Assembly (NCBI GenBank): GCA_964610955.1
Contig: CAZSYV010000004.1
Coordinates: forward strand, 2,596-65,861
DNA from: an uncultured Klebsiella sp.
GTDB taxonomy: Bacteria > Pseudomonadota > Gammaproteobacteria > Pseudomonadales > UBA5518
Direction of reading: 5' to 3'
DNA length: 63,266 nucleotides
Shown: piece after piece, positions 3,229 to 61,985 of the stretch
Position numbering within the stretch: position 1 is the first letter of the stretch
Layout of the letters: every line of letters starts with the position of its first letter
Made by a program: the position numbers and the translations under genes
Notes under the pieces: model-generated
Databases searched by the model: none
Seen by the model: the letters and a program-made list of their open reading frames with translations, nothing else
Told to the model about the DNA's origin: nothing

Positions 3229-3324
3229 TGCCTGCGCTCGCGGTTTTTGACCGCGCTCGGGGTTGATGCCGTGCGAGTGCTGTGGCGAGCTCGTGAGCTG
3301 GTGAACCGAAACCCTGAGGCGGGC

Positions 3325-4443: not shown

Positions 4444-4458
4444 CGGCAGGTGAAGCCC

Positions 4459-6885
4459 ATGGCCAATGCTGCAGGCAGCACGCAACTGCCCGTGATCGAC
4501 GACAAGGTGGAATTCGACCTCCGTTCGGGCTCATGGCTCGAGAATATCATCTTCACCAACCGCGCGCTGGTCGTCGTCGTCTGTGGACTCCTGACCCTGT
4601 TCTTCGGCTACTACGCCGTTGCCAATATGCGGTTGCAGTCCGAGTTTTCGAAGATGCTGCCGAAAAACCATCCGTACGTGCTGAATTACGAGGCGCACGC
4701 CGAAGAGTTGCGTGGTCTGGGAAACGTCCTGCGCATTGCGGTTGCGACCGACGGCCCGACGATCTACACGCCCGGGTACCTGCAGACGCTTCGCGAGGTC
4801 AACGAGGCGGTGTTTTTCATCCCGGGTGTGGCGCGCGAGAAGATGAAGTCGCTGTGGACGCCGAACACGCGCTACCGCGTGGTTACCGAAGAAGGCTTCG
4901 AGGGCGATACGGTGATTCCGCCAGACTATGATGGATCACCCGTCTCGATCGCACGCGTGCGCCGGAATGTGGCGAGCGCGGGCCTGCGCGGCAACCTGGT
5001 GGCAAACGACGAGCGTTCCGCGGCACTGCTGGTGCCATTGATGGACCGCGATCCCGATACCGGCGAGCGGCTCGACTACGCGCGTCTCGGTATGCAGCTC
5101 GAGGCGGTGCGTGCCCGCTTCGAGGCTGGCACCGGGGCTGTCGGAAAGCCGACGGGCAGTGGGATCAGCATGGAGATCATCGGCTTCGCAAAGATCGTCG
5201 CCGATCTGATCGCAGGCATGAAGAGTGTGGTGATGTTCTTCTTCATCGCCGTGCTGATCGCGACCTCGCTGCTTTACTGGTATGCGCGCTGCCTGCGCAG
5301 CACGCTGGTAGTGGTGGTGATCACGATCGGCGCGGTGGTCTGGCAGCTCGGACTGCTCACCCTGCTCGGCTTCGAGCTCGATCCTTACTCGATCCTGGTA
5401 CCGTTTCTGGTGTTCGCGATCGGCGTGTCGCACGGCGCACAGAAGCTGAACGGCATCCTCCAGGACACGGGCCGGGGCTGTCATCCCTACGTTGCGGCCC
5501 GTTATACGTTCAGGCGCCTGTTTCTCGCCGGCTTCACCGCGCTTGCCTCCGACGGCATCGGTTTCGCGGTGCTGATGATCATCCAGATCCCGGTGATCCA
5601 GGACCTCGCGATCACCGCCAGCATCGGCGTGCTGGTCCTTATCTTCACCAACCTGATCCTGATCCCGGTCGTGCTGTCATATATCGGGGTCTCGCTGTCG
5701 GCAGCCAGGCGCGCGCACCGGCAGGAGTGTGCGGACAGGGAGCCCCACGGCATCTGGCGCTTTCTGCTGAAGTTCACCGGGCGTCGCTGGGCGGGCGCTG
5801 CCATAAGTGTCGCCGTCGCGCTCAGCGTCGGTTCGCTGGTGGTTGCACAGGGCCTGCAGATCGGTGACCTCGACCCAGGTGCACCGGAACTGCGTCCCGA
5901 CTCGCGCTATAACCGCGATGTGAAGTTCATGATCGATCATTACTCGGTATCCAGCGATGTCTTCGCGGTGATCGTGGTGACTGCAAGCGATGGCTGCACC
6001 GATCCCGAGACACTCGCACTTGCCGATGAACTCGAGTGGCGCTTTCGCCAGATTCCCGAAGTCGAGGATGTCGTCGGGATGAACTCCGGCACCCGGCGGC
6101 TGCTTGCCGGACTCAACGAGGGCTACATCAAGTGGCTGTCGCTGAACCGCAACCAGGCCTCGATCAACTATGCGGCAGTCGAGATGGTCGACATGGGACT
6201 GGTCAATCCCGAATGTTCGGTATGGCCGATGCTGGTCTACCTCGCCGATCACAAGGCGAAGACGCTGCAGGCGGTGGTGGATGCGCTCGAGCGCTTCGAT
6301 CGTGAGTGGCCAAGTGACAAGGTGCAGTTCCTCGGTGCAGCGGGCAACGCGGGCTTCGAGGCCGCGACCAATATCGTGGTCGGCAAGGCCAATCGCGAAA
6401 TGATGCTCTGGGTCTACGCTGCGGTGATTGCGTTGAGCTATGCGACGTTCCGTTCACTGGCAGGTGTGGTCTGTGCGGTGCTGCCGCTGATGCTGACCTC
6501 TGTGCTTTGCGAGGCGCTGATGGTGATGCTCGGCATCGGTGTCAAGGTTGCCACACTGCCCGTGATTGCCCTTGGTGTGGGAATCGGCATCGACTATGCG
6601 CTTTACGTACTCACGGTGGTGCTGGCGAAAACGCGTGCAGGCCTGTCGTTGCGCGATGCGTACTACGCCGCACTCACGTTCACCGGGCGTGTGGTCGCGC
6701 TGATCGGTGTCACGCTCGCTGCGGGAGTGATCACCTGGGCCTTCTCACCGATCAAGTTCCAGGCCGACATGGGGATCCTGCTGGCCTTCATGTTCCTGTG
6801 GAACATGGTTGGTGCGCTGGTGCTGATGCCTGCGCTGGCGTGTTTCCTGTTGCCTGGGCCTCAGGCCAGGTGTTCGTCCAGGTAG
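4459..6885 (+). CDS. MMPL/RND-family (SSD-like) transporter
   Basis: About 808 aa with two repeats of 1 TM + periplasmic loop + 5 TM; 'GAPELRPDSRYNRD', 'GVGIGIDYALY', 'IKFQADMGILLAFMFLWNMVGA'. Confidence 0.9.
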   Translation: MANAAGSTQLPVIDDKVEFDLRSGSWLENIIFTNRALVVVVCGLLTLFFGYYAVANMRLQSEFSKMLPKNHPYVLNYEAHAEELRGLGNVLRIAVATDGPTIYTPGYLQTLREVNEAVFFIPGVAREKMKSLWTPNTRYRVVTEEGFEGDTVIPPDYDGSPVSIARVRRNVASAGLRGNLVANDERSAALLVPLMDRDPDTGERLDYARLGMQLEAVRARFEAGTGAVGKPTGSGISMEIIGFAKIVADLIAGMKSVVMFFFIAVLIATSLLYWYARCLRSTLVVVVITIGAVVWQLGLLTLLGFELDPYSILVPFLVFAIGVSHGAQKLNGILQDTGRGCHPYVAARYTFRRLFLAGFTALASDGIGFAVLMIIQIPVIQDLAITASIGVLVLIFTNLILIPVVLSYIGVSLSAARRAHRQECADREPHGIWRFLLKFTGRRWAGAAISVAVALSVGSLVVAQGLQIGDLDPGAPELRPDSRYNRDVKFMIDHYSVSSDVFAVIVVTASDGCTDPETLALADELEWRFRQIPEVEDVVGMNSGTRRLLAGLNEGYIKWLSLNRNQASINYAAVEMVDMGLVNPECSVWPMLVYLADHKAKTLQAVVDALERFDREWPSDKVQFLGAAGNAGFEAATNIVVGKANREMMLWVYAAVIALSYATFRSLAGVVCAVLPLMLTSVLCEALMVMLGIGVKVATLPVIALGVGIGIDYALYVLTVVLAKTRAGLSLRDAYYAALTFTGRVVALIGVTLAAGVITWAFSPIKFQADMGILLAFMFLWNMVGALVLMPALACFLLPGPQARCSSR

Positions 6886-7139
6886 TGCTCGATCTCGGTC
6901 TTCAGCCGCTTTTTCATCATCGACATCAACATGCCGAGCTTCACGTCGACGAGGATGTCTTCCTCATTCAGCGTGAGCTGTGCGTCGAGTCCGCCGGAAT
7001 AGTTGTAATGCACGATGTCGCCTTCCCACTCGTAGCTGCCGCCGTATTTGGACTGCAGCGTCTTGACGAGTTTCTCTGCGCGCTTGCGCAATGTCTTGCG
7101 GTCGAGATCGTGCTCGCGTTCGATGCAGATGTGGCTCAT
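6861..7139 (-). CDS. Polyhydroxyalkanoic-acid-system protein (PHA_gran_rgn-like)
   Basis: 92 aa 'MSHICIEREHDLDRKTLRKRAEKLVKTLQSKYGGSYEWEGDIVHYNYSGGLDAQLTLNEEDILVDVKLGMLMSMMKKRL..EIEHYLDEHL' matches the family pattern. Confidence 0.85.
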   Translation of the reverse strand: MSHICIEREHDLDRKTLRKRAEKLVKTLQSKYGGSYEWEGDIVHYNYSGGLDAQLTLNEEDILVDVKLGMLMSMMKKRLKTEIEHYLDEHLA

Positions 7140-7205
7140 GGTGGGGCTCTCATGCTTTTGTGCCGATTGTGCGCGTTCGTTGCGCGCTTGCCAATCGCCA
7201 CTGCA

Positions 7206-7214
7206 TGCCATAAT
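7206..7214 (+). promoter_or_regulatory. Putative extended -10 (TGnCATAAT) for rubredoxin
   Basis: TGCCATAAT at 7206-7214, TTGCCA at 7188-7193 (short 15-nt spacer), about 40 nt upstream of the ATG. Confidence 0.35.
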
Positions 7215-7255
7215 GCCTGCGCGTATCAACGGGTGTCGTGGGGGCGAAGCAGGGG

Positions 7256-7429
7256 ATGAGTGGTTACAGGAAATGGGAATGCGTGATCTGCGGTTTCATC
7301 TACGATGAGGCCCTGGGTCTGCCGGATCACGGCATCGCAGCGGGGACGCGCTGGGAAGACGTTCCCGAGGATTTCGAGTGTCCCGAATGTGGTATCGGCA
7401 AGTCCGACTTCGACCTGCTGCCTGAATGA
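7256..7429 (+). CDS. Rubredoxin
   Basis: 57 aa with CxxC ('WECVICGFIYD') and 'W..VPEDFECPECG' motifs. Confidence 0.95.
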   Translation: MSGYRKWECVICGFIYDEALGLPDHGIAAGTRWEDVPEDFECPECGIGKSDFDLLPE

Positions 7430-7448
7430 GTCGGCGCCCCCGTGCGAT

Positions 7449-8588
7449 TCAGAACTCGCGCAGGCTTGCGTAGCGGTCGCGGTGGAAGTACGCATCACCG
7501 AGGATCTGCATCGTCACCCGGGCGCGTTTCAGGAACAGGCCGATATCGAGCTGGTCCGTGATGCCGATACCGCCGTGCATCTGCACGGCCTCGCTGCTGA
7601 CCAGTTCGAAGACATCGTTTGCACGGGCCTTGGCCAGGCTGGCGACCATCGGCAGCAGTGGCGAGGCGGTGTCGATCTTGATGCAACCGTCCATGACCAC
7701 GCTCTGCAGCAGCTCCAGCTCGGTGAACATCTGTGCGGCGCGGTGCTGCAGTGCCTGGAAGCTGCCGATCAGTGCACCGAACTGCTTGCGGGTCTTCAGG
7801 TACTCGATGGTCTGATCGAAGCACTCCCTGGCGCTGCCGTACATTTCCATCGCAATCATCGCACGCCCGCGATCCAGTACCTGCTCCAGCGCCGGCCACG
7901 CCTCGCCCTCGGTACCGAGAAGCGCGGAGACCGGGACCTCGACGTCATGGAACTCGATGCGAGCCGCATTGCGGCTGTCCATCATGATCGTGCGCCGACG
8001 CGAGACACCGGCCGTGGCGGGGTCGACCAGAAACAGGCTGAGCCCCTTGGCTGAGCCCGGCTCACCGGCGCTGCGCGCAACGACCACCAGGCGATCGGCA
8101 CTGTGACCGTCGAGCACGAACTGCTTGGTTCCGTTCAGGCGGTAGCCTTCACCGGTGCGCTCGGCACGCAGCTGCACACCGAGCGGGTCATGACGGTGTG
8201 ACTCCTCGAGAGCAAGCGCCAGGCAGACCTCTCCGCTGGCAACGCTTGGCAGAATCTCTTCCTTGTGGTGCTGCTCGCCTGCGATCAGGATCGCCGAGGC
8301 ACCCAGCACACAGCTTGCATACAGTGGTGATGCGCTGAGCGTGCGCCCCATTTCCTGCAGCACCACGCCAAGTCCGCCGAAGCCGAAGTCGAGCCCGCCG
8401 AACTCCTCGGGGATGGCGATCCCCGCCCAGCCCATTTCGGCCATTTCCACCCACAGCTCGCGCGAATAACCGAGCGGGTCGTGATCGTCACGCAGCGTGC
8501 GCAGCGCCGCGATGGGAGCCTTCTCCCTCAGGAACTCGCGCGCAGTCTCGCGCAGGTGCCGTTGTTCCTCATTCAGTGTCATTGGCAT
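7449..8588 (-). CDS. Acyl-CoA dehydrogenase, probable non-catalytic beta subunit of a heteromeric pair
   Basis: ACAD motifs 'RKQFGALIGSFQALQH', 'QMHGGIGIT'; has 'LDRGR' where catalytic subunits carry 'xHER'; adjacent to and co-oriented with a second ACAD. Confidence 0.85.
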   Translation of the reverse strand: MPMTLNEEQRHLRETAREFLREKAPIAALRTLRDDHDPLGYSRELWVEMAEMGWAGIAIPEEFGGLDFGFGGLGVVLQEMGRTLSASPLYASCVLGASAILIAGEQHHKEEILPSVASGEVCLALALEESHRHDPLGVQLRAERTGEGYRLNGTKQFVLDGHSADRLVVVARSAGEPGSAKGLSLFLVDPATAGVSRRRTIMMDSRNAARIEFHDVEVPVSALLGTEGEAWPALEQVLDRGRAMIAMEMYGSARECFDQTIEYLKTRKQFGALIGSFQALQHRAAQMFTELELLQSVVMDGCIKIDTASPLLPMVASLAKARANDVFELVSSEAVQMHGGIGITDQLDIGLFLKRARVTMQILGDAYFHRDRYASLREF

Positions 8589-8618
8589 CGATCGGTTCCC
8601 CGTATGCAGGCTTGGCGT

Positions 8619-9815
8619 TCAGATCACGCCGGGAAGTTCGAGGGCGCGCTTGGCGATGATGTTGAGCTGAATCTCCGACGTGCCACCGGCAATGCTGAGT
8701 GCCTTGTTGAACAGGCACTGCCGTGCCGTGGCAATTTCGGCTGCCGTGAAGTCATCGCCCTCCCAGCCAACTCCCTGGTTGCCCATCATTGCCATCATCA
8801 ACTCGTACTTGCGTTTCTCTTCCTCGGTTCCGCAGTACTTCATGATCAGCGGTGTCAGCCCGTTTCCGGCGCCAGCCCGGGTTTCCTCGAGGATGCGCAG
8901 CTGCGTCAGCCCGATCGCGTGGACCCGCATCTCGTGGCGAGCGAGAGCGTCACGCATCAACGGGTCGGCAATGTGTCCATCGACCATGGGCAGGTAGAGG
9001 CGGGCACACTCGATCGGCGTATGGGCGGCGATCGTCACCGTGTCGCCCATGTCCGACATCAGCTTGCGTTCGTGGCGCAGCAGCGCCTTGGCGACCGACC
9101 AGCCCTCGTTCTGGGCGCCGACCAGGTTTTCCTTCGGCACGCGCACGTTGTCGAAGAAGGTCTGGCAGAACTCCGAGTTGCCGTTGATCAGTCGAATCGG
9201 CGTGACCGAGACACCGGGCGTTGCCATGTCGATCAGCAGGAAGCTGATTCCCGATTGCTTGTTGCGCGCGCTGGGGTCGGTGCGTACCAGGCAGAAGATC
9301 CAGTCGGAATGGTCTGCGTGTGAGGTCCAGATCTTCGAGCCGTTGACGATGAAGTGATCACCGTGATCTTCGGCGCGTGTCTGCAGGCTCGCCAGGTCGG
9401 AGCCGGCATTCGGCTCGCTGTATCCCTGACACCAGCGCAGCCGCCCTTCGGCAATCGCCGGCAGGTGCACGCGCTTCTGTTCCTCGTTGCCGAACTCGAA
9501 CAGTGCCGGGCCGAGCATCCAGATGCCCAGGCCAAAGAGTGGCGCACGACAGCCGAGGCGCACCATTTCCTTGCGCAGGATGCGCGCCTGCTGGCCGCTC
9601 AGCCCCGCCCCGCCGTACTCGCGTGGCCATTCGGGGACGGTCCAGCCCCTTGCCAGCATGCGATCGAACCACAGGCGCGCGTCTTCGGAGGCGAACCTTG
9701 CGTTGCGCCCGCCCCAGTACTGCTCCTCGGGAGATGCGGGTGTGCGTTGTGACTGGGGACAATTGGCTTCGAGCCACTCGCGCACTTCGTTGCGAAACTG
9801 TTCGAGATCTTTCAT
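8619..9815 (-). CDS. Acyl-CoA dehydrogenase, catalytic alpha subunit
   Basis: 'WCQGYSEPNAGSDLASL', 'NGSKIWTS', 'LLRHER' (catalytic Glu position), 'SIAGGTSEIQLNII'. Confidence 0.92.
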   Translation of the reverse strand: MKDLEQFRNEVREWLEANCPQSQRTPASPEEQYWGGRNARFASEDARLWFDRMLARGWTVPEWPREYGGAGLSGQQARILRKEMVRLGCRAPLFGLGIWMLGPALFEFGNEEQKRVHLPAIAEGRLRWCQGYSEPNAGSDLASLQTRAEDHGDHFIVNGSKIWTSHADHSDWIFCLVRTDPSARNKQSGISFLLIDMATPGVSVTPIRLINGNSEFCQTFFDNVRVPKENLVGAQNEGWSVAKALLRHERKLMSDMGDTVTIAAHTPIECARLYLPMVDGHIADPLMRDALARHEMRVHAIGLTQLRILEETRAGAGNGLTPLIMKYCGTEEEKRKYELMMAMMGNQGVGWEGDDFTAAEIATARQCLFNKALSIAGGTSEIQLNIIAKRALELPGVI

Positions 9816-10044
9816 GGGATTGCCGGTTCAGCCCCCTTGATTCGGGATCGCGAAAGCTTAAGGCCTGTCAGCAGCATGGCAATGACAATAAGGATCGCCG
9901 CCGGTTAACAATAGAAGTCAGCAGCAGGTGGGGGAAACCACTGTCTGGCTTTCCGCAGGGGTGGCTGCGCACATAAGATAGCCGCGGTTTCGTGCTGTGT
10001 CTGCCGCCGGCGTTTCGCTGCCAGGGCACGATTGAGGATTGACT

Positions 10045-11607
10045 ATGTCATCGATGATCGAATCACTGTTGCGCCCCGGCGCGTTTCCAGGCTGCGCGCA
10101 GGCCGCACGGCTGATCGAGACACATATCTCCTGGGTGCTGCTTGCCGGGGAGTTCGCGTACAAGATCAAGAAGCCGGTGAATCTGGGTTTTCTCGATTAT
10201 TCGACGCCTGCGCGGCGCCATCGCTTCTGTGAGGAGGAACTGCGCGTCAACCGGCGTTATGCGCCGCAGCTCTATCTGGACGTGGTTGCAATAACCGCGG
10301 GTGATTCGGGTGCGGAAATCGCCGGATCCGGGCCGGTGCTCGATCATGCCGTGCGCATGCGGCGGTTCCCCGATGATGCGCTGCTCAGTGAGGTGGTGGC
10401 GCGTGGGCCGGTCGATATCGCGCTCTGGCACCAGCTTGGCGTCGATGTTGCGGCGGTACATGCCGAGCTTCCGCACGCTGGACCCGAGTACGAGGATGGG
10501 CGCGGGACGCCGCCGCAGTTGCGCGATGCGGTGCATCAGAATTTCCGTCAGACCCGTCCTTTCCTGCGTCGTGATGATGACATCGCTCTGCTCAATCGTC
10601 TCGAGGAGCTGGCGTGGGTTGCCTGCAAGGCACATGAGCGCCGGCTCTGGGAGCGCTACGAGAACGGCTGGGTACGCGAGTGTCATGGCGATCTGCACCT
10701 GGGCAATATCGTGCTGACCGAGGGCCGTGCGATCGCCTTCGATGCCATCGAGTTCAACCCGGCACTGAGCTGGATCGACCTGATGAACGAGCTTGCCTTC
10801 CTCGTCATGGACTGCGAGAGCCGTGGCGTCGCCGAGGGTGGCTTCGTGGCACTGAACGCGTGGCTCGAACACACGGGCGACTACGCAGGGCTCGAGTTGC
10901 TGGACTTCTTCTGCGCCTATCGCGCGATGGTGCGAGCGAAGGTCGCTGCGCTGCGTGTCGGGCGCCCACCGCTTGTCGAGGGATCACCCGCACACGGTGA
11001 ATGCCGTCGCTACCTCGAGCTGACCGCACGCTACACCGGGACACGCCGCCCGTTTCTCGCGATCACCTGCGGTGTGTCGGGCTCGGGCAAGTCGACGCTT
11101 GCGGAGAGGCTGCTCGGTAGCGCGCGGGCGATCCGGGTGCGCTCCGATGTCGAACGCAAGCGGCTGTTCGGAATTCCCCCACAGGGCGACAGCCGTGCGC
11201 TGCCTGCGGGTGAGGGACTCTACAGTGCCGAGGCCAGCCGGCGTACCTTCGCACGCCTGGCGCAGCTCGCGAGAGACATCATTGGCCATGGCTTGCCGGT
11301 GATCGTCGATGCGACATTCATCCAGCGTGCGCATCGCGACGACTTCCGCCAGCTTGCGCACCAGCTTGGTGTCCCGTTCCATATCCTGCTGTGTGATGCA
11401 CCACGTGCGGAACTGGAGCGGCGCGTGCGTGCGCGCAGTGCGGCGCGCAACGATCCCTCAGAGGCGGATGTCGATGTGCTCGCGGCACAGCTTGCCCGGG
11501 CCGAGCTTCCCGATCCCTTGACCGAGCCGGAAACCCTGGTCGCGGCGGGTATCGACGCACTGACGGTAGAGGCTCTGTCGGCACGCCTTGTTCGCGCCGA
11601 GGCGTGA
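10045..11607 (+). CDS. Bifunctional aminoglycoside-phosphotransferase-like / P-loop (AAA_33) kinase
   Basis: 'IETHISWVLL..AYKIKKPV..GFLDY', 'RECHGDLHLGNI', 'FDAIEFN', Walker A 'GVSGSGKST', 'VIVDATF'. Confidence 0.9.
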   Translation: MSSMIESLLRPGAFPGCAQAARLIETHISWVLLAGEFAYKIKKPVNLGFLDYSTPARRHRFCEEELRVNRRYAPQLYLDVVAITAGDSGAEIAGSGPVLDHAVRMRRFPDDALLSEVVARGPVDIALWHQLGVDVAAVHAELPHAGPEYEDGRGTPPQLRDAVHQNFRQTRPFLRRDDDIALLNRLEELAWVACKAHERRLWERYENGWVRECHGDLHLGNIVLTEGRAIAFDAIEFNPALSWIDLMNELAFLVMDCESRGVAEGGFVALNAWLEHTGDYAGLELLDFFCAYRAMVRAKVAALRVGRPPLVEGSPAHGECRRYLELTARYTGTRRPFLAITCGVSGSGKSTLAERLLGSARAIRVRSDVERKRLFGIPPQGDSRALPAGEGLYSAEASRRTFARLAQLARDIIGHGLPVIVDATFIQRAHRDDFRQLAHQLGVPFHILLCDAPRAELERRVRARSAARNDPSEADVDVLAAQLARAELPDPLTEPETLVAAGIDALTVEALSARLVRAEA

Positions 11608-13082: not shown

Positions 13083-13856
13083 TCAGGGGGCTGTCGATGC
13101 GCTCAGGAAGGCGGGCGCCTCGCCGCCGCCGTGCACCGTGATTGCTGCGCCCGAGATGTAACTGGCCAGGGGTGATGCCAGGAACAGGCAGGTGTTGCCA
13201 ATGTCGGCGGGTACCGCCATGCGACCGAGCGGGATGGTGCGCCCGACTGCCGCGATTCCCTCGTCGTCACCGTAGTGCAGATGCGACTGTTCGGTCTGCA
13301 CCAGGCCGGCGATCACGGCGATGACACGCACCTTGGGTGCCCACTCGACGGCGAGCGAGTTGGTCAGGTTGACCAGCCCGGCCTTGGCTGCCCCGTAGGC
13401 AGCTGTCCCCGGTGAGGGACGAATCGCACTTACGCTGGCGATATTGATGATCGTGCCGCCCGTGTCCTGGCGCTGCATCACGCGGTTTGCGACCTGGGCG
13501 AAGTTGAGCGGCGCGAGCAGGTTGAGTCGGATGATCGATTCGGAGAAGCGCGGCGAGGCAGTCGCTGCATCGGCGTTCGGCGCGCCACCGGCGTTGTTGA
13601 CCAGCACGTCGATGCGACCGTAGTGGCTGACCATTGCATCGACGCAGGCGACGATCTGATCGTAGTCGCGCACGTCGGTCTGCCAGAAGCTGGCCTCGTT
13701 TCCTGCGCATGCGATCGGCTGTTCGGGTGCCGTGCGACCGACGATCGCCACCTGTGCCCCGGCTTCGAGGAAGCAGCGGCTGATTCCCGCGCCGACGCCT
13801 TTGGCGCCCCCGGTCACGATCACCACCTTGCCGTGCATGTTCAGCCTGTCCTGCAT
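13083..13856 (-). CDS. SDR-family oxidoreductase, Rv3549c-like (steroid C/D-ring cluster type)
   Basis: TGGAKGVG, NNAGG, YGAAK; 'RPSPGTAAYGAAKAGL.NLT.SLAVEWAPKVRV' and C-terminal 'VHGGGEAP' resemble M. tuberculosis Rv3549c as recalled. Confidence 0.85.
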   Translation of the reverse strand: MQDRLNMHGKVVIVTGGAKGVGAGISRCFLEAGAQVAIVGRTAPEQPIACAGNEASFWQTDVRDYDQIVACVDAMVSHYGRIDVLVNNAGGAPNADAATASPRFSESIIRLNLLAPLNFAQVANRVMQRQDTGGTIINIASVSAIRPSPGTAAYGAAKAGLVNLTNSLAVEWAPKVRVIAVIAGLVQTEQSHLHYGDDEGIAAVGRTIPLGRMAVPADIGNTCLFLASPLASYISGAAITVHGGGEAPAFLSASTAP

Positions 13857-13903
13857 GGGTTCCTCCGAAAATTCGGCATTTCACTTGCGACGCCGCTTGC
13901 GTC

Positions 13904-13923
13904 TAGAATGGCGCGCCATTATA
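13904..13923. promoter_or_regulatory. Back-to-back -10 elements around a perfect 14-bp palindrome
   Basis: TAGAAT (+, 13904-13909) and TATAAT (-, 13923-13918) flank AATGGCGCGCCATT (13907-13920) between the SDR and the F420 operon. Confidence 0.5.
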
Positions 13924-13989
13924 GCCACAGGCACGACGGTTCATGATGACCATGCACGCGGCGGCCGACACTGACACAGGGGAAGATGC

Positions 13990-14682
13990 ATGAGCGAAGC
14001 GAAGGTCTCGAGGAAGATCGCGATTCTGGGTGGTACCGGAGCACTCGGCACCGGTCTCGTACGACGCTGGACGCATGCCGGGCACTCCGTGATCATCGGC
14101 TCGCGCACGCTGGAGAAGGCGCAGGCGGCACTTGCAGACCTGCAGCAGACCATGGGCGAGTGGGGAGCTGCCGACTTCGATGTTGCAGCGATGGAAAACC
14201 TCGAGGCTGCGCGTGCTGCCGACATCGTCGTGCTGACGGTGCCCTTCGCGCACCAGAAGTCGACACTCGAACACGTGCGCCCCGCACTCGAGGGCAAGAT
14301 TCTCGTCGATGTGACCGTGCCGCTGGTGCCGCCCAAGGTCGGCACGGTGCAGATGCCACCGGAAGGCTCTGCGGGTGCTGCGGCGCAGTTGCTTCTTGGG
14401 GATGGGGTGCGAGTGGTGTCGGCGTTCCAGAATGTCGCTGCCTACCACCTGCAGGAGGGCCATGGCATCGCCTGTGATGTGCTGGTCAGCGGCAATGACA
14501 AGGAGGCGCGCCAGGAGGTGATCGGCCTGGTCGAGGCCTGCGGGATGCGCGGTTTCCATGCCGGACCGATCGCGAACTCTGCGGCGGCGGAGGCGCTGAC
14601 CTCGGTCATCATCAACATCAACCGGGCGTTCAAGTGCCATGCGGGAATCCGCATTACCGGGATCGAAGACCACGGTGAGTGA
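13990..14682 (+). CDS. npdG: NADPH-dependent F420 reductase (Fno)
   Basis: 'IAILGGTGALGTGL..RW..AGH.VIIGSR..EKA', 'VVLTVPF', 'VVSAFQNV', 'ALTSVII.IN'. Confidence 0.92.
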   Translation: MSEAKVSRKIAILGGTGALGTGLVRRWTHAGHSVIIGSRTLEKAQAALADLQQTMGEWGAADFDVAAMENLEAARAADIVVLTVPFAHQKSTLEHVRPALEGKILVDVTVPLVPPKVGTVQMPPEGSAGAAAQLLLGDGVRVVSAFQNVAAYHLQEGHGIACDVLVSGNDKEARQEVIGLVEACGMRGFHAGPIANSAAAEALTSVIININRAFKCHAGIRITGIEDHGE

Positions 14683-15436
14683 CACGCTGCAGCTGATACC
14701 GCTGACCGGGCTGCCGCTGGTCGAGCCCGGTGACGACGTGGCTGCGCTGCTGATCGATGCGGTGCAGCGGCTTGCTGGCGGCCTGCGTGACGGCGACCTG
14801 CTGGTGATCGCGCAGAAGATCATTTCCAAGGCCGAGGGACGCTATGTCGACCTGCGTGAGGTCGTGCCGTCGCAGCGCGCACTCGAACTCGCGGGTCCGG
14901 CCGACAAGGACCCGCGGCTGATCGAAGTGATCCTCGAGGAATCGAGCGAGGTGCTGCGCCAGCGGCCAGGGGCGCTGATCGTCGAGCACCGCCTTGGCTA
15001 CGTGCATGCAAACGCGGGCGTCGACCGCTCCAATGTCGCGGATCCGAACAAGGTGCTGTTGTTGCCCCTGGATCCCGATGCCAGCGCACGACGCCTGCGC
15101 GAGCGTGCGAGCCAGGCGACGGGTGCGACGGTCTCGGTGATCATCAACGACTCGGCAGGCCGGCCGTGGCGCAACGGCATCATCGGTTTCGCGATTGGCT
15201 GCGCGGGTTTTCGACCGGTGGTGAACCGGATCGGGGCACCGGATCTGTTCGGACGCAAGCTCGAGATCACCGAGATTGCCGTGGCCGACGAGCTTGCTGC
15301 AGCGGCGTCGTTCGTGATGGGGCAGGCCGACGAGTCAATCCCGGCGGTGCTGGTGCGTGGCGCCGCGCTCGAGCCTTCGAACGAGGGCATGGGGGCGCTG
15401 CTGCGTGCGCGCGAGCATGACCTGTTCCGGCAGTGA
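14675..15436 (+). CDS. cofE: Coenzyme F420-0:L-glutamate ligase (single domain)
   Basis: 'GLPLVEPGDD', 'GDLLVIAQKIISKAEGR', 'ANAGVDRSN', 'DS.GRPWR.G', 'VADELAAAA..VMGQ.DE'; GTG start overlaps the npdG stop. Confidence 0.93.
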   Translation: MSDTLQLIPLTGLPLVEPGDDVAALLIDAVQRLAGGLRDGDLLVIAQKIISKAEGRYVDLREVVPSQRALELAGPADKDPRLIEVILEESSEVLRQRPGALIVEHRLGYVHANAGVDRSNVADPNKVLLLPLDPDASARRLRERASQATGATVSVIINDSAGRPWRNGIIGFAIGCAGFRPVVNRIGAPDLFGRKLEITEIAVADELAAAASFVMGQADESIPAVLVRGAALEPSNEGMGALLRAREHDLFRQ

Positions 15437-16380
15437 ACACGACACGGCACGTCCTGGCGATCTCGGGGGGGGTTGGCGGTGCCAAGCTCGCCAGCGGACT
15501 CGCTGCGGTGCTTGCGCCGCAGGAACTGCTGATCGCTGCAAACACCGGTGACGATTTCGAACACCTTGGTCTGACCGTCTGCCCCGACCTGGACACGCTG
15601 GTGTACACGCTCGCCGGCTGTGCCGACCCGATTCGCGGCTGGGGGCTTGCGGGAGAGAGCTGGAACTGTCTGGAATCGCTTGTCCGGCTGGGCGGGCCCG
15701 ACTGGTTTCGTCTTGGGGATCGTGATCTGGCGATGCACCTGCGCCGCAGCGCACTGCTGCAGGCTGGCTACACCCTGAGTGAGCTGACGGCCGAACTGGC
15801 AGCTGCGCTTGGGGTGCGTCATGCGATCGTGCCGATGAGCGATGCACCGGTGCGCACCCTGGTCGACACCGAGCGCGGCACATTTGCCTTCCAGGAGTAC
15901 TTCGTGCGCGAACGCTGTGAGCCCGGGGTGCGCGCACTGCGCTATTCTGGAGCCGAGCATGCACAGCCGGCGCCCGTGCTGCGCGACTGGGTGATCGATC
16001 GGCAACCGTTGGTTGTCGTGTGTCCTTCCAATCCCTATCTCAGCATCGATCCCATACTTGCGGTCTCCGGCATGCGCGCGCTGCTGGAGCCGCTGACCGT
16101 GGTTGCAGTCTCTCCGATCGTCGGCGGCAGGGCGATCAAGGGGCCAGCAGCGAAGATGATGGCGGAGCTCGGCGTGCCCGTGTCGGCCCTCGAGGTCGCC
16201 AGGCATTATCAGGGGCTGTTGCAGGCGTTCGTGATCGATCGCGAGGACGAAGTGCACGCCGATGCGATCACTGCATTCGGCATGCGGGTACTGGTCACCG
16301 ACACCGTGATGCGAGTGGACGCGGATCGTGAACGTCTGGCACGCGAGTTGCTGCAGTTCATGCCAGGGCAGGCGCAATGA
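15433..16380 (+). CDS. cofD: 2-phospho-L-lactate transferase (CofD/FbiA)
   Basis: 'SGGVGGAKL', 'NTGDDF..GL.VCPDLDTL.YTLAG', 'WF.LGDRDLA', 'PSNPYLSI.PIL', 'VSPIVGGRAIKGPAAKMM'. Confidence 0.95.
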   Translation: MNTTRHVLAISGGVGGAKLASGLAAVLAPQELLIAANTGDDFEHLGLTVCPDLDTLVYTLAGCADPIRGWGLAGESWNCLESLVRLGGPDWFRLGDRDLAMHLRRSALLQAGYTLSELTAELAAALGVRHAIVPMSDAPVRTLVDTERGTFAFQEYFVRERCEPGVRALRYSGAEHAQPAPVLRDWVIDRQPLVVVCPSNPYLSIDPILAVSGMRALLEPLTVVAVSPIVGGRAIKGPAAKMMAELGVPVSALEVARHYQGLLQAFVIDREDEVHADAITAFGMRVLVTDTVMRVDADRERLARELLQFMPGQAQ

Positions 16381-17090
16381 GCATCGATGCACTCTGGGTT
16401 CTCGTGCCGCTGAAGAACCTCGACAGGGCAAAGGAGCGCCTGGCGAGAGTGCTCGATCCGCACGAGCGTCGCGAGTTGGTCGGGGCGATGGCGCGCGACG
16501 TGCTGGACGCGTTGCTCGGCGTTCCCCTGGCTGCAGGGCAGATCGTGCTGGTGTCCGACGATGCCGATGTTGCGGCGCTCGCACACGAGTTCGGTACGGG
16601 GATCCTGCGGCCTCGCCCGCTGATGCAGGATCCGCTGAACGCGGCGCTCGCCGAGGCGACCGACCACGTATTGCGGTGCGGTGCCAGGCATGTGCTGGTG
16701 CTGCACGCGGATCTGCCGTGTGCCACATCCGCGGAGCTCCGCGCGCTGATCGCGGGGCACCAGACACGCCTTGTCGATGACCGTGGCGCACATGCCACGC
16801 TGGTCAGTGATCGCGCGGGATCCGGTACCAACTGCCTGTTGAGCTCTCCTCCGGCAGCGTTCCCGTACCGCTTCGGTGCTGGCAGCCGGCGGCTGCACCA
16901 CGAGGCTGGCGCGACAGCGGGAGTCGTGATTGCCGAGTTCGACGCCGATGGCCTGCGACGCGATATCGATGAGCCGGCGGAGCTGGCCGAGCTTGTGGCC
17001 ACCCTGCAAAGTCTCCAGAATGGCTGCGGAGCGCACACCGCACGGTTGCTGCTGCGCCTGCGCCCACCGCCTTCACCAGATCGAGGTTGA
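16377..17090 (+). CDS. cofC: 2-phospho-L-lactate/PEP guanylyltransferase (CofC/FbiD)
   Basis: 'VPLK.L..AKERLA.VL...ER..LV.AMARDVL', 'LNAAL', 'HADLP', 'GSGTN', 'FG..S', 'DID'. Confidence 0.92.
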   Translation: MSIDALWVLVPLKNLDRAKERLARVLDPHERRELVGAMARDVLDALLGVPLAAGQIVLVSDDADVAALAHEFGTGILRPRPLMQDPLNAALAEATDHVLRCGARHVLVLHADLPCATSAELRALIAGHQTRLVDDRGAHATLVSDRAGSGTNCLLSSPPAAFPYRFGAGSRRLHHEAGATAGVVIAEFDADGLRRDIDEPAELAELVATLQSLQNGCGAHTARLLLRLRPPPSPDRG

Positions 17091-19540
17091 CCCCCGTGCA
17101 GATGTTGAGCAGAAATCCACTGGACGCGCTCGTCGATGCGGCACACTCCAGTGCCGGCCTTTCCGATGAGCAGGCACTGGCACTGGCCGGTATCGGCGAT
17201 ACGGCGGAACTGATGCGTGCTGCAGCGCAGATGCGCGACGCGACGCACGGCAAACTGATCACCTATTCACGCAAGGTCTTCCTTCCGCTCACGCAGCTGT
17301 GCCGCGATGTGTGTCACTACTGCACCTTTGCACAGACGCCGAAGAAGATCGATGTGCCATACATGAGTCTCGAGCGCGTGCTCGAAATCGCACGGGCGGC
17401 TGCTGACCTCGGCTGCAAGGAGGCACTGTTCACGCTCGGCGAGAAACCCGAGCTGCGCTACCGCGTCGCGCGCGAGGCGCTTGCGGCGATGGGCTTCGAG
17501 ACCACGCTCGAATACCTGGCGCACGTCGCTCGTGCGGTACGTGACGAAACCGGCCTGCTGCCGCACATCAATGCGGGAAACATGACCGCGGCTGAAATCG
17601 CCATGCTGCGTCCTTTCGCACCATCGATGGGCATCATGCTGGAATCGTCGTCGGAGCGTCTCTGTGCCAAGGGCATGCCGCACTACGGTTCACCCGACAA
17701 GGCTCCCGCAGTGCGTCTGCAGACGATGCGTCTTGCAGGCGAGGCGAGGGTGCCGTTCACTTCCGGGATACTGATCGGCATCGGCGAGACACGCGCCGAA
17801 CGTATCGAGTCGCTGCTCGCGCTGCGTGCGATCCACCGTGAGCATGGCAACCTGCAGGAAGTCATCGTGCAGAACTTCCGCGCAAAGCCGGGCACCCTGA
17901 TGGCGGATGCACCCGAGCCGGCCCTCGACGATCTGCTGTGGAGCATTGCGGTTGCGCGCCTCGTGCTTGGTCCGCAGATGAGCGTGCAGGCTCCGCCGAA
18001 CCTCAGCCCCGGCGTGCTGCCGCGCCTGGTGGATGCCGGGATCAACGACTGGGGCGGGGTGTCACCGGTCACGCCGGATTTCGTCAACCCGGAAGCGCCG
18101 TGGCCGCACCTGGATCTTCTTCGTGAGGAAAGCGCACGCAGTGGCAGATTCCTGCAGGAGCGTCTGACGATCTACCCACAGTACATCCTCGACTGCGAGC
18201 GCTGGGTGGATCCGGCGCTGCAGCCGCTGCTGCGCGCGGCAAGCGATGCCGAAGGCTACCCACGTGTCGATGGCTGGCTGACCGGCGCACCGACACAGTT
18301 GCCGCCGATCGAAAGCGGTCTGCTGGCCGGTACGCTTGCTGCAGGCGATGGCAGCACTCGTGTCGAGGCAGTGCTGGCGCGTGCACGGCGGGGCGAGGAT
18401 CTCGCTCTCGATGAGGTGGTGACGCTGCTCGCGGCGCGCGGCAGGGATTTCGTGCGCGTGTGCGAACTCGCCGACGAGCTCAACCGCAGCCTGCATGGCG
18501 AGCGTGTGAGCTACATCGTCAACCGCAACATCAACTACACGAACGTCTGCTACTTCAAGTGTCAGTTCTGTGCCTTCTCCAAGGGCAAGGCCCATGAGGC
18601 GCTGCGTGGCACACCCTACGACCTCGATGATCAGGAGCTGGCGCGACGGGTCGAGGAGGCATGGGAACGCGGGGCCACGGAAGTGTGCCTGCAGGGTGGC
18701 ATCCATCCGGCCTACACCGGACAGAAGTACCTGGACATCTGCCACATCGTCAAGCGCGTGGCACCGCAGATGCACATCCACGCCTTTTCGCCCCTCGAGA
18801 TCTGGCAGGGGGCAAAGACGCTCGGGGTGTCGCTGGGCGAGTTTCTCACCCGGCTGCAGGAAGCCGGCCTGGCGACCCTGCCGGGGACAGCGGCAGAGAT
18901 CCTGCACGATGAAGTGCGTGCAACGCTGTGTCCCGACAAGATTCGCAGTGCGGAATGGGCCGAGGTGATGACGGTTGCGCACGGGCTGGGCATCCGCAGC
19001 ACGGCGACCATGATGTACGGCCATATCGAGCGCCTCGAACACCAGGCGCACCATCTGCTGCTGATCCGTGAGCTGCAGCGTCGCCATGGTGGCTTCACCG
19101 AGTTCGTGCCGCTGCCTTTCGTCGCCGGCGAGGCGCCGATGTTCCTGCGCGGGCGCGCGCGGCGCGGACCGACGTTCCGTGAGGCGGTACTGGTGCATGC
19201 GGTTGCACGCATCGCACTGTTCCCTCTGGTTCCGAACATTCAGGCATCGTGGGTCAAGATGGGGCCAGAGGGTGTCGCTGCCTGCCTGCACGCTGGCGCG
19301 AACGACGTCGGCGGCACGCTGATGAACGAGTCGATCACCCGTGCGGCCGGGGCGGCGCATGGACAGGAATTTCCCCCAGCGGAACTCGAGGCACTGATTC
19401 GTGCTGCCGGACGTGAGCCGTGGCAGCGCACCACGCTCTATGGCGAGGCGCCGCCTGAACGTCGGCTTGCCTCGTACGATGCGGCCCCCCTTGCCGAGTA
19501 CGTCAACACGCCGATACGGCGTGGCGCGGCACATGGGTGA
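17087..19540 (+). CDS. fbiC: FO synthase, fused CofG-CofH (FbiC)
   Basis: Two radical-SAM CxxxCxxC motifs (CRDVCHYC; CYFKCQFC), 'YSRKVF.PLT', 'GINDWGGVSPVT', 'NRNINYTNVC', 'GANDVGGTLMNESITRAAGA'. Confidence 0.96.
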   Translation: MTPVQMLSRNPLDALVDAAHSSAGLSDEQALALAGIGDTAELMRAAAQMRDATHGKLITYSRKVFLPLTQLCRDVCHYCTFAQTPKKIDVPYMSLERVLEIARAAADLGCKEALFTLGEKPELRYRVAREALAAMGFETTLEYLAHVARAVRDETGLLPHINAGNMTAAEIAMLRPFAPSMGIMLESSSERLCAKGMPHYGSPDKAPAVRLQTMRLAGEARVPFTSGILIGIGETRAERIESLLALRAIHREHGNLQEVIVQNFRAKPGTLMADAPEPALDDLLWSIAVARLVLGPQMSVQAPPNLSPGVLPRLVDAGINDWGGVSPVTPDFVNPEAPWPHLDLLREESARSGRFLQERLTIYPQYILDCERWVDPALQPLLRAASDAEGYPRVDGWLTGAPTQLPPIESGLLAGTLAAGDGSTRVEAVLARARRGEDLALDEVVTLLAARGRDFVRVCELADELNRSLHGERVSYIVNRNINYTNVCYFKCQFCAFSKGKAHEALRGTPYDLDDQELARRVEEAWERGATEVCLQGGIHPAYTGQKYLDICHIVKRVAPQMHIHAFSPLEIWQGAKTLGVSLGEFLTRLQEAGLATLPGTAAEILHDEVRATLCPDKIRSAEWAEVMTVAHGLGIRSTATMMYGHIERLEHQAHHLLLIRELQRRHGGFTEFVPLPFVAGEAPMFLRGRARRGPTFREAVLVHAVARIALFPLVPNIQASWVKMGPEGVAACLHAGANDVGGTLMNESITRAAGAAHGQEFPPAELEALIRAAGREPWQRTTLYGEAPPERRLASYDAAPLAEYVNTPIRRGAAHG

Positions 19541-19555
19541 GGGCGGTGTGATCAG

Positions 19556-20287
19556 GTGAGCGAATTGGTCGGGCAGGCCGCGGGTTCCGACAGGCCCGGC
19601 AATGGCAAGTCGCGCATCGATCTCGAGGCTTCGTGGCTTGCCGCACTTGGTGCCGAATTCGAACAGCCGTACATGCGGGCACTGCGCGCGTTCCTGGTGG
19701 ATGAAGGACAGGCCGGCAAGACAATCTACCCAACTGCTGGCAACTGGTTTGCGGCGTTTCGTCATGCGCCGTTGCCGGCCGTGCGGGTGGTCGTGCTGGG
19801 TCAGGATCCCTATCACGGCCCGGGGCAGGCGCACGGGCTGTGCTTTTCCGTGCCGCGTGGTGTGGCGATACCTCCGTCGCTGCAGAACATCTTTACTGAG
19901 CTGCACCGGGATCTGGGTATCGCAATCCCGTCACACGGCTGTCTGGAACATTGGGCGCGCCAGGGTGTGCTGTTGCTGAACAGCGTGCTGACCGTCGAGC
20001 GCGGCAGGGCAGGTTCCCATCAGGGGCGTGGCTGGGAGACGTTCACGGACCGCGTGGTGGGCGTGCTGAACGGGCAGTGTCAGCATCTGGTATTCCTGCT
20101 TTGGGGCAGCTATGCGCAGCGCAAGGGCCGGATCATCGATCGTGCCCGCCACCTGGTGCTGTCGTCGCCGCACCCGTCGCCGCTGTCGGCCTACCGTGGC
20201 TTCATCGGCAACGGGCATTTTTCAGCTGTGAATGCCTATCTCGACCAGCACGGCCAGGCACCGATCGACTGGCGTCTTCCCGCCTAG
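19556..20287 (+). CDS. ung: Uracil-DNA glycosylase (family 1)
   Basis: '[18 protein letters not shown]', 'QGVLLLN', 'HPSPLSA'. Confidence 0.97.
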
Positions 20288-60515: not shown

Positions 60516-60618
60516 GCGCCAGTGCACGGGTGCGGCGAGCACGTCGCTGCGCTGTGGTTCAGTCTCTGGTGAGGCGCTATAGTCGTTGCCTGTCCGGGTG
60601 TGAGTGGGGCGAGGATCG

Positions 60619-61032
60619 ATGCGGGTCGAAGAAGTCAACAAGGAACGGGTGCGGCGTTTTTTCGCCGCAATGAGTGCCGGTGACGTTGCTGCGCTGATCG
60701 ATGCCTATGACGATGAAGGTGCGGTATGGACCAGTGGACACACCCTCATTTCGGGCACCTTTCCGAAGGTGCGTATTCGCGAGGCGGCCGGGCGCATCTT
60801 CGAGGCCTTTCCTTCCGGGATCGAGTTCGTCATTCATGCGATGACGGCAGAGGGGGACCGGGTGGCGGTCGAGGCCGAATCGCGTGGACTGCACATCAGC
60901 GGCAAGCGGTACAACAATCTCTATCATTTCCTGTTCCGTTTTCGCGACGGGCGGGTGCTGAGCCTGCGTGAGTACATGGATACCGAGATGGTGACCGACG
61001 TACTATGCGGCGGACAGCGTCCGGCTCGCTGA
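60619..61032 (+). CDS. NTF2/SnoaL-like (ketosteroid-isomerase-like) protein
   Basis: 'N...VRRFF.A...GD', 'AEGDRVAVE', 'G..YNN.YHF.F..RDG.....REY.DT'. Confidence 0.9.
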   Translation: MRVEEVNKERVRRFFAAMSAGDVAALIDAYDDEGAVWTSGHTLISGTFPKVRIREAAGRIFEAFPSGIEFVIHAMTAEGDRVAVEAESRGLHISGKRYNNLYHFLFRFRDGRVLSLREYMDTEMVTDVLCGGQRPAR

Positions 61033-61082
61033 AGGGCGCGGATCGGTCGACACGAACCTTTGACAAACTGGAGAATCCTGCA

Positions 61083-61985
61083 ATGGCGAAATTCGGCCTC
61101 GCGCTGGGCATGTTCGGGGTGCACAACTACTTTGGCGGCGATGCCCGTGGCTACATCGAAGCCGCACGCCTCGCTGATGCGGCGGGCATCGACCAGGTGG
61201 TGTTCACCGACCACGTCGTGATGGGTGAGCAGACCGATCGCTACCCTTATGGCGCCTTTCCGCTGCCACCTGAAGCGCCCTGGTTCGAGCCGTTGACGCT
61301 GCTCTCGGCCATTGCGGCCGTGACCACGCGCATCGAGCTGGCGACCGGCATTCTGATCGCGCCGCTCAGGCCAGCCGCGCTGCTGGCGAAGATGCTTGCG
61401 ACCCTGGACACCCTTGCTCCCGGGCGGTTGCAGATCGGCATCGGCATTGGCTGGCAGCGTGAGGAGTTCGAGGCCGAGGGTCTCGATTTCGATCAGGCGT
61501 GGACGCTGCTCGACGATGGGGTGCGCGCGATGCAACTGCTGTGGCGTGAGGCACCGGCAAGCTTCCAATCGCAAACGGTGAACTTCAAGCGTATCTACAG
61601 CGTGCCATTCCCGCGAGATCGTTCGATTCCGCTGTGGTACGGCGTGAAGCCGACCGAGCGTCAGGCACGGCGCATCGCCGAACTCGGCGCGGGTTGGGTG
61701 CCGATCTCGACCGATGCGCAGTATGTGCGTGACGGTGTGCAACGCATCCGTGCCGCCTTTGTGGCCGCGGGGCGCGATCCGGCAACGCTGCGGGTGCGTG
61801 CCCACGTGCCGGTTCACTACGACGCCGGGCATCGTGGTGATTTCGAGCGTGCGGTTGCTGCGATTCCCGATCTGCTCGATGCCGGTGCCACCGTGATCGA
61901 GTTCGAGCACCATCCCTTCGTTCGCGACAAGGGCGAACTGGTGGAATTCTACGCGCGCCTCGCAGCGATCAAGGCGCGCTTCTGA
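61083..61985 (+). CDS. LLM-class F420-dependent oxidoreductase (TIGR03619-like)
   Basis: 'A..AD.AG.D....DHVV', 'EPL..LSAIAA.TTRIEL.TGILI.PLR', 'AK..ATLD....GRL..G.G.GW..EEF'; F420 biosynthesis genes occur in the same window. Confidence 0.85.
   Translation: MAKFGLALGMFGVHNYFGGDARGYIEAARLADAAGIDQVVFTDHVVMGEQTDRYPYGAFPLPPEAPWFEPLTLLSAIAAVTTRIELATGILIAPLRPAALLAKMLATLDTLAPGRLQIGIGIGWQREEFEAEGLDFDQAWTLLDDGVRAMQLLWREAPASFQSQTVNFKRIYSVPFPRDRSIPLWYGVKPTERQARRIAELGAGWVPISTDAQYVRDGVQRIRAAFVAAGRDPATLRVRAHVPVHYDAGHRGDFERAVAAIPDLLDAGATVIEFEHHPFVRDKGELVEFYARLAAIKARF

Follow-up and report, generated by a model that had tools for sequence, protein, structure and literature searches.

The locus described here raises the question of whether a gammaproteobacterium makes the cofactor F420, by which route the cofactor would be completed, and whether the genes are recent or old in their host. 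F420 allows unusual hydride chemistry at low potential, such as xenobiotic and steroid-like reductions, and is of use in biocatalysis. The DNA analysed, hereafter the window, is a contig segment of 63,266 nucleotides. It comes from an uncultured, Cellvibrionales-like gammaproteobacterium of activated sludge: the core genes run in the order nadB-rpoE-rseA-mucB-degP-lepA-lepB-rnc-era-recO, and LepA is 96% identical to that of a 'Pseudomonadales bacterium' MAG, 89-90% to those of Gammaproteobacteria MAGs and 81-82% to those of Microbulbifer and Cellvibrionales. The original prediction, made from the sequence, had also placed the host in this class.

The ORF analysis of the window revealed five genes in one direction, fno-cofE-cofD-cofC-fbiC, at positions 13990-19540 of the forward strand. 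They encode a 230-residue NADPH-dependent F420 reductase (fno/npdG, 13990..14682; TIGR01915, 201.5 against a cut-off of 149.8), a 253-residue single-domain F420-0:gamma-glutamyl ligase (cofE, 14675..15436; TIGR01916, 283.2 against 180.7), a 315-residue transferase of the phospho-acid onto FO (cofD, 15433..16380; TIGR01819, 291.8 against 257.5), a 237-residue guanylyltransferase activating the C3 acid (cofC/fbiD, 16377..17090; TIGR03552, 142.3 against 105) and an 817-residue fused CofG-CofH FO synthase (fbiC, 17087..19540; NF006687, 1115 against 1018). Successive genes overlap by 8, 4, 4 and 4 nt when the GTG at 14675 is taken as the start of cofE, a choice made after its relatives, the longest cofE ORF beginning at 14639. 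The fbiC ORF is counted from a TTG, and its true start may lie slightly downstream. An RBS-like GGGGAAG is found 5 nt upstream of the fno ATG at 13990. All five proteins exceed their NCBIfam equivalog cut-offs, Pfam agrees, and the E-values, from 1e-42 to 0, exclude chance. The gene content, the order and the CofG-CofH fusion are thus as first proposed. An exact-sequence look-up of the FbiC protein of the window returned no record.

Every catalytic residue examined in FbiC, CofD and CofC is present. FbiC matches both TIGR03550 and TIGR03551, with a CofG domain at residues 59-380 and a CofH domain at 442-787, and its two radical-SAM CxxxCxxC motifs, C72RDVC76HYC79 and C488YFKC492QFC495, have intact Cys triads. 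In CofD, D40 and D52 occupy the positions of D45 and D57, the metal ligands in Mycobacterium smegmatis FbiA, and are invariant in 20 homologues; the match of the protein to Methanosarcina mazei CofD, at 209 bits, is better than that to FbiA, at 168 bits. CofC matches Mtb FbiD at all eight positions that contact PEP (K13, L87, D112, T151, G167, S170, D196 and D198). Of these, K13, D112, T151, S170, D196 and D198, which comprise the three Asp residues that bind Mg and the Lys, Thr and Ser that bind the substrate, correspond to K17, D116, T148, S166, D188 and D190 of the mycobacterial enzyme. The best solved relatives of CofE are the Archaeoglobus fulgidus CofE structures 2PHN/7ULD (E 5e-57, full-length alignment); like its 68 relatives, all of about 255 residues, it lacks the FbiB-type C-terminal nitroreductase domain. 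Fno is closest to Thermobifida fusca Fno (5N2I, E 2.8e-39), followed by A. fulgidus Fno (1JAX/1JAY, E 1e-29). By family membership, CofC would perform the GTP-dependent activation of a three-carbon phospho-acid, CofD would transfer the activated acid onto FO, CofE would add gamma-glutamates and Fno would reduce F420 with NADPH.

That last step would serve users such as an LLM-class oxidoreductase encoded elsewhere in the window (61005..61985, forward strand; TIGR03619, 200.3 against a cut-off of 166.9), within which falls position 61083, where an F420-type LLM enzyme had been announced. This candidate cofactor user is paired with a gene for a SnoaL_2/NTF2-like protein (60604..61032, forward strand; PF12680, E 7.8e-17). 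In the relative L084, fbiC is directly followed by a paralogous TIGR03619 LLM gene (197 bits) with a SnoaL_2 gene. An orthology of the two pairs is not supported: the LLM proteins align only in part, with about 38% identity, and the SnoaL gene gave no match. The pairs do belong to the same family.

Is the operon expressed? Contigs from two sludge metatranscriptomes match the window with no mismatches over fno-cofE, from fbiC into the following gene, ung, and over the SnoaL-LLM pair, where they start at 60610. They span the fno/cofE, cofC/fbiC and fbiC/ung junctions, the last being crossed by contigs 18521-19655 (X10) and 18520-19674 (X13). This RNA evidence consists of assembled contigs, to which some DNA carry-over and close strains may have contributed. 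Coverage falls away in the spacers between genes, a pattern that speaks for RNA, not for carried-over DNA. A sigma-70-like promoter candidate for the operon, TTCACT-18-TAGAAT, lies at 13880..13909 of the forward strand; with 9/12 matches it is weak alone, and a contig of run X10 starts at 13930, 21 nt 3' of its candidate -10 element. The consensus promoter and terminator scans performed at chance level overall, and among their hits only 13880-13909 gains some support, through that contig start. The ung gene, for uracil-DNA glycosylase (19556..20287, forward strand; NF003589, 341 against 223), begins 15 nt 3' of fbiC. The same consensus scan, at chance level overall, found no terminator within the operon or between fbiC and ung, and ung is possibly read through from the operon. 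Intact residues and mismatch-free contigs are consistent with the functional producer that had been foreseen, for which missing key residues would have been the counter-evidence. The locus thus appears as an intact, functional-looking five-gene F420 set, apparently transcribed, and very probably represents a functional operon for the synthesis and reduction of a lactyl-type F420.

As for its ancestry, horizontal acquisition followed by compositional assimilation had been suggested. The composition is indeed that of the host: the GC content in 2-kb windows is 0.65-0.67 over the operon and 0.64-0.65 in its flanks, and GC3 is 0.76-0.80 for fno, cofE and fbiC, the operon genes that passed a crude filter, and 0.78 for lepA and relA. 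With the criterion of all five genes in sequence and gaps below 500 nt, the same gene order was found in 18 other loci, from seven Gammaproteobacteria, four Alphaproteobacteria (e.g. L015, L016 and L021), four Acidobacteriota, one unclassified pseudomonadotal organism and the two closest relatives. A tree of CofD only left the backbone unresolved and was replaced by a five-protein concatenation. In the latter, classes and phyla are mixed, at least three separate groups of Gammaproteobacteria are required, and Acidobacteriota are nested among Proteobacteria. This mixing indicates that the cassette was transferred between classes and phyla in the past. It could also be taken as a sign that the operon is a recently acquired island, assimilated in appearance only, which we consider very unlikely. 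Besides the host-like GC and GC3, no mobile-element genes were found in the annotation of the flanking regions, and the concatenation joins the window to the related loci L081 and L084 (support 100), as sister to a Spongiibacteraceae/Halieaceae/Litorivivens clade (100), within a gammaproteobacterial clade of 11 rows (98).

The neighbourhood also argues against recent arrival. Head-to-head with fno, across 133 bp, lies a gene for an SDR oxidoreductase of the NF005893/PRK07856 type (13083..13856, reverse strand; 391 bits against a cut-off of 255). It is kept next to fno in seven of nine clade members, with 71-91% identity in L081, L084, L014, L064, L067 and L069, and is not found there in L051 or L072. 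On the other side, ung follows the operon also in L081, L083, L084/L085, L069, L064, L051 and L072. The SDR-upstream and ung-downstream flanks are thus kept in at least seven related genomes whose CofD identity ranges from 53 to 82%. Together with the strongly supported, gamma-only clade, these shared flanks point to long vertical inheritance. The cassette has long been part of this gammaproteobacterial lineage, and any horizontal acquisition is old. The idea of horizontal transfer therefore survives in its deep sense, not in its recent one.

Judging from the gene content, one chemical step of F420 synthesis is not encoded in the operon: the initial description stands for the five gene identities, but these leave the route incomplete, neither a dehydro-F420-0 reductase nor a known source of 2-phospholactate (2-PL) being encoded in the window. 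A tblastn search with 25 FbiE-like queries yielded no FbiE-like ORF in the 63-kb window (best E 0.006), and none is present in 16 gammaproteobacterial loci or in L081 and L084, each covered over up to about 20 kb. In 26 Chloroflexi loci, an FbiE-like gene separates cofE from cofD. Three proteobacterial loci have one beside the cassette, and in L077, one of the three, it lies directly 3' of fbiC. Proteobacteria have many stand-alone FbiB-like proteins (5898 matches), among them proteins of Ramlibacter, in which the cassette occurs as well.

If the operon works, we favour, with about half of our confidence, the use of PEP by CofC and the reduction of dehydro-F420-0 by FbiE, a stand-alone FbiB-C-like nitroreductase whose gene would lie in another part of the genome. 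This route is supported by the sister cassettes of Chloroflexi, in which the CofC site pattern is shared and an FbiE-like gene is present, by the FbiE-like genes beside the three proteobacterial cassettes and by the abundance of stand-alone FbiB-like proteins. The next most likely route, to which we give nearer a third, is of the archaeal type: CofC would activate 2-phospho-L-lactate supplied by a further kinase, and CofD would give F420-0 directly, with no need for a reductase, so that the five genes and a source of 2-PL would suffice. This route would explain why neither the window nor any of the related gammaproteobacterial loci searched has an FbiE-like gene, and it fits the proximity of CofD to the M. 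mazei enzyme and of the single-domain CofE to that of A. fulgidus. Furthermore, proteobacterial CofCs, namely those of Paracoccus and Oligotropha, preferred 2-PL in vitro, but in assays with the non-cognate CofD of Methanocaldococcus jannaschii, shown to bias the outcome (PMC8764529). The window CofC, moreover, has the same contact residues as Mtb FbiD, which uses PEP. To our knowledge, no bacterial source of 2-PL has been described. The APH/P-loop kinase fusion at 10039-11607 was considered for the kinase and rejected, as its synteny with the cassette is limited to the closest relatives. The CofC binding-site residues were likewise discarded as a means to discriminate PEP from 2-PL, the same pattern being found whether or not a cassette includes FbiE.

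A variant cofactor, either dehydro-F420 as end product without a reductase or 3PG-F420 as in Mycetohabitans, would also accommodate a reductase not linked to the operon. Betaproteobacteria do contain derivatives of F420, and biogas sludge has yielded 3PG-F420 whose producers are not known (PMC8764529). We nevertheless regard this as improbable. At the positions of the Mycetohabitans 3-PG determinants M91, C95, H145 and S162, CofC has L87, L91, S149 and G167, and the diagnostic Ser/Thr at the S162 position is missing both here (Gly) and in 61 of 62 relatives. As to dehydro-F420, it is reported to be less stable and is not known as a final cofactor (PMC8764529). Given Leu, Leu, Ser and Gly at these four positions, the predicted product is classical F420, with PEP or 2-phospholactate as its precursor, and not 3PG-F420. 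It might finally be that the lineage has no FbiE or FbiB-C homologue in its whole genome and completes F420 with a new enzyme, for instance a bacterial kinase that forms 2-phospholactate or a dehydro-F420-0 reductase of a family other than that of FbiE. This is rather unlikely; if true, the compact operon would provide a handle on a long-missing step of the Gram-negative route. The divergent SDR is the sole positional candidate for a missing-step enzyme, and a weak one.

With this locus, an F420 system is added for a gammaproteobacterial lineage of wastewater. The lineage has cultured relatives, in Haliea and Litorivivens, and the locus thereby indicates culturable Gram-negative hosts for the study of F420. 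It widens the range of settings, treatment plants and coastal waters, in which F420-dependent degradation may operate. The occurrence of FbiE-bearing cassettes in Chloroflexi and of FbiE-less ones in Gammaproteobacteria, Alphaproteobacteria and Acidobacteriota frames the question of how Gram-negative bacteria complete the lactyl side chain, to which this locus gives no answer. The original prediction had held F420 to be only sporadic in Proteobacteria, which is overstated, since F420 is already documented there (PMC8498797). The text of that 2021 review does not mention Gammaproteobacteria, and no relevant paper linking F420 with Cellvibrionales families was retrieved in a literature search.

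The closest known systems are those of the Gram-negative producers Paracoccus denitrificans and Oligotropha carboxidovorans, whose gene sets, as relayed from Ney et al. 2017 by PMC8498797 and PMC8764529, similarly comprise a single-domain CofE, CofC, CofD, a fused FbiC and Fno as F420 reductant. What differs is the host, a Cellvibrionales-like gammaproteobacterium of activated sludge, for which F420 production is predicted. With the mycobacterial FbiA/FbiB/FbiC/FbiD pathway, which leads from PEP through dehydro-F420-0 to F420, the window shares the fused FbiC, the PEP-contact residues of FbiD and the metal ligands of CofD. Unlike in that pathway, its CofE lacks the C-terminal nitroreductase domain of FbiB, its genes form one operon headed by fno, and its CofD is nearer to the archaeal protein than to FbiA. 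In the archaeal Cof pathway, in contrast, CofG and CofH are separate proteins, and the substrate is 2-phospholactate. Mycetohabitans rhizoxinica also combines a proteobacterial host with CofC, CofD, CofE and FbiC, and its 3PG-F420 system is set apart by the four CofC residues discussed above. In Chloroflexi, a stand-alone dehydro-F420 reductase is represented by FbiE of Thermomicrobium roseum (Braga et al. 2020, as cited in PMC8498797). Anaerolineales loci harbour a sister cassette, fno-cofE-X-cofD-cofC, with the same CofC site pattern and a CofD 50-58% identical to that of the window; X is an FbiB-C-like nitroreductase (TIGR03553-like, 148 bits), which is absent from the window, and fbiC is usually unlinked there, whereas it is part of the operon here. 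The operon belongs to a known kind of gene cassette, and what is new is an apparently transcribed member in a wastewater gammaproteobacterial lineage.

The operon for F420 biosynthesis and reduction in this sludge gammaproteobacterium is real and intact, and is apparently transcribed in situ. As the original prediction had it, five plus-strand ORFs form the series fno-cofE-cofD-cofC-fbiC at 13990-19540, and all of them exceed the cut-offs of the respective NCBIfam equivalogs, namely npdG (fno; 201.5 versus 149.8), CofE (283.2 versus 180.7), CofD (291.8 versus 257.5), CofC (142.3 versus 105) and the bifunctional CofGH, FbiC (1115 versus 1018). Their products match the Pfam families F420_oxidored, F420_ligase, CofD, CofC and Radical_SAM plus CofH_C. 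With the cofE start set to the GTG at 14675, following the calls in relatives, successive genes overlap by 8, 4, 4 and 4 nt. None of the residues examined in FbiC, CofD and CofC is missing, in line with the functional F420 producer that had been proposed. Both radical-SAM Cys triads of FbiC are intact (C72/C76/C79 and C488/C492/C495), and CofD retains D40 and D52, which align with D45 and D57, the metal ligands of M. smegmatis FbiA (PMC7253369). The PEP- and Mg-contact residues of M. tuberculosis FbiD are all kept in CofC (8/8: K13, L87, D112, T151, G167, S170, D196, D198). Full-length alignments were obtained for Fno with the Fno proteins of T. fusca and A. fulgidus, and for CofE with A. fulgidus CofE. 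Judged by best solved relatives, the operon proteins have mosaic affinities: the FbiC fusion, like Fno and CofC, has a bacterial/actinobacterial look, whereas the nearest solved relatives of CofD and CofE are archaeal proteins.

Contigs from two sludge metatranscriptome runs, X10 and X13, match the operon without mismatches from fno into cofE (13930-14869) and from the cofC/fbiC junction through the whole of fbiC into ung (17045-19655/19674). As these data are assembled contigs, they show presence rather than expression level. In the spacers at roughly 13657-13930 and 60496-60611, coverage is absent or almost so, a loss more consistent with RNA than with carried-over DNA. The first RNA contig starts 21 nt downstream of a weak sigma-70-like site (TTCACT-18-TAGAAT, 13880-13909). 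The ung gene (to 20287) begins 15 nt past the end of fbiC (19540). A terminator scan gave no convincing candidate within the operon or between fbiC and ung, and given this short spacing and the contigs of the RNA runs that bridge the junction, transcription of the F420 operon may continue into ung.

Other genes of the window include nadB, rpoE-rseA-mucB, degP, lepA-lepB-rnc-era-recO, relA, adk and hemH. LepA shares 96% identity with its counterpart in a 'Pseudomonadales bacterium' MAG, 89-90% with proteins of 'Gammaproteobacteria bacterium' MAGs and 81-82% with those of Microbulbifer and Cellvibrionales, and activated-sludge and wastewater metagenomes contain the operon sequence almost in full. 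This makes the host an uncultured sludge gammaproteobacterium that is Cellvibrionales-like and, broadly defined, a member of Pseudomonadales.

There are thousands of CofD homologues; those nearest to the window's CofD (82%, 70% and 64% identity) belong to metagenomes and to MAGs labelled 'Pseudomonadales' or 'Gammaproteobacteria'. The related loci L081-L085 have a neighbourhood like that of the window, with an ACAD pair, a kinase fusion, TetR, phasin, an SDR gene divergent from fno-cofE-cofD-cofC-fbiC, and then ung. In our comparison set of 80 loci from species-representative genomes, the complete five-gene order with gaps below 500 nt occurs in seven Gammaproteobacteria, four Alphaproteobacteria, four Acidobacteriota and one unclassified Pseudomonadota, in addition to the two closest relatives. 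The Anaerolineales order is fno-cofE-X-cofD-cofC, X being an extra gene, without fbiC. In a tree of the five concatenated operon proteins, the window groups with L081 and L084 (support 100), the sister clade comprises Spongiibacteraceae, Litorivivens, Oceanicoccus and Haliea (100), and both are nested in a gamma-only clade of 11 members (98). Members of that clade have in common both the SDR gene divergent from fno (71-91% identity) and ung on the downstream side, and the cassette in this lineage is therefore old and vertically inherited. At deeper nodes the classes are intermixed and Acidobacteriota are nested among Proteobacteria, which shows that the cassette has crossed between phyla. The proposed horizontal acquisition followed by assimilation is thus borne out for deep inter-phylum transfer and for composition, the GC and GC3 of the operon being indistinguishable from those of housekeeping genes, but not as a recent event.

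The SDR gene (13083-13856, minus strand, PRK07856 type), divergent from fno, keeps its position in seven of nine gammaproteobacterial clade members. At 10039-11607, 2.4 kb upstream of the operon, an APH-like kinase is fused to a P-loop (AAA_33) kinase in a protein of 522 aa, and this fusion is syntenic in the closest relatives only (68-79% identity). Further upstream, a lipid-/steroid-type block (1-9815) includes an MMPL/RND transporter, two adjacent acyl-CoA dehydrogenases, a PHA-granule protein, TetR and phasin, and is conserved in L081 from the transporter onward. In Haliea sp. E17 (L051:10960-13995) and an Oceanicoccus MAG (L072:10972-14124), the matches to CofC and to FbiC fall within a single unbroken ORF (1054 and 1061 aa), which suggests a three-domain CofC-CofG-CofH fusion.

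The PEP route to the F420 side chain requires a dehydro-F420-0 reductase. An FbiE-like gene was not found in the window (tblastn, best E 0.006), in the 16 gammaproteobacterial loci (16/16) or in L081 and L084. The Chloroflexi gene X is of this FbiE-like reductase type, matching best, at 148 bits, the NCBIfam models TIGR03553 (C-terminal domain of FbiB) and NF009810 (FbiB); it occurs in 26 Chloroflexi loci versus only three proteobacterial ones (L077, L046 and, weakly, L013). Such a stand-alone FbiB-C-like nitroreductase of FbiE type was noted in L065 and 24 other loci: in Anaerolineales cassettes it sits between cofE and cofD (e.g. L065:167-781, L017:9349-9963), and in an Alcaligenaceae MAG it directly follows fbiC (L077:5084-5785). 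As stand-alone FbiB-like proteins are common in Proteobacteria (5898 matches, including Pusillimonas, Ramlibacter, Cupriavidus and Delftia), an unlinked copy elsewhere in the host genome is plausible.

In the CofC of Mycetohabitans, 3-PG use hinges on S162, and M91, C95 and H145 contribute to it (Hasan et al., PMC8764529). Aligned to 7P97 and 6BWH, the CofC of the window has G167, L87, L91 and S149 instead, and Gly also occupies the diagnostic site in 61 of 62 related CofCs, so that 3PG-F420 would be an unlikely product; if the operon works, we regard a variant cofactor as very improbable. The CofC sequence cannot tell PEP from 2-phospholactate (2-PL), since its site pattern is identical in cassettes with and without the reductase and CofD co-determines substrate specificity (PMC8764529). 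For a working operon, we give about an even chance to the PEP route with an unlinked FbiE, and consider the 2-PL route a possible but less probable alternative. Completing the side chain without a linked reductase is a problem that this operon shares with other Gram-negative F420 producers.

The F420-type LLM gene also predicted for the window was recovered as a TIGR03619 F420-dependent LLM (ORF 61005-61985; 200.3 versus 166.9), preceded by a SnoaL_2 gene. Contigs of X10 and X13 cover this SnoaL-LLM unit from 60610 with no mismatches. The LLM and SnoaL_2/NTF2-like pair (60604-61985) lies 41 kb from the operon; in L084, whose CofD is 70% identical to that of the window, a paralogous pair directly follows fbiC (L084:14202-15585). 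A Mer-like F420-dependent LLM (~334 aa; NF002619, 178 bits, below cut-off) is found within 4 kb of cof genes in 49 loci (e.g. L059:1893-2897), mostly of Chloroflexi, with some Alpha-, Beta- and Gammaproteobacteria and Acidobacteriota.

F420 has been confirmed biochemically in Alpha- and Betaproteobacteria and in Chloroflexi, and horizontal transfer of its genes is the accepted view (PMC8498797; PMC8764529). The text of a 2021 review leaves Gammaproteobacteria unmentioned (PMC8498797), and our literature search for F420 in Cellvibrionales families found no paper. Automated annotation already names these genes. The operon is of an already known cassette type, long resident in its lineage, and the locus described here adds to the known F420 cassettes.
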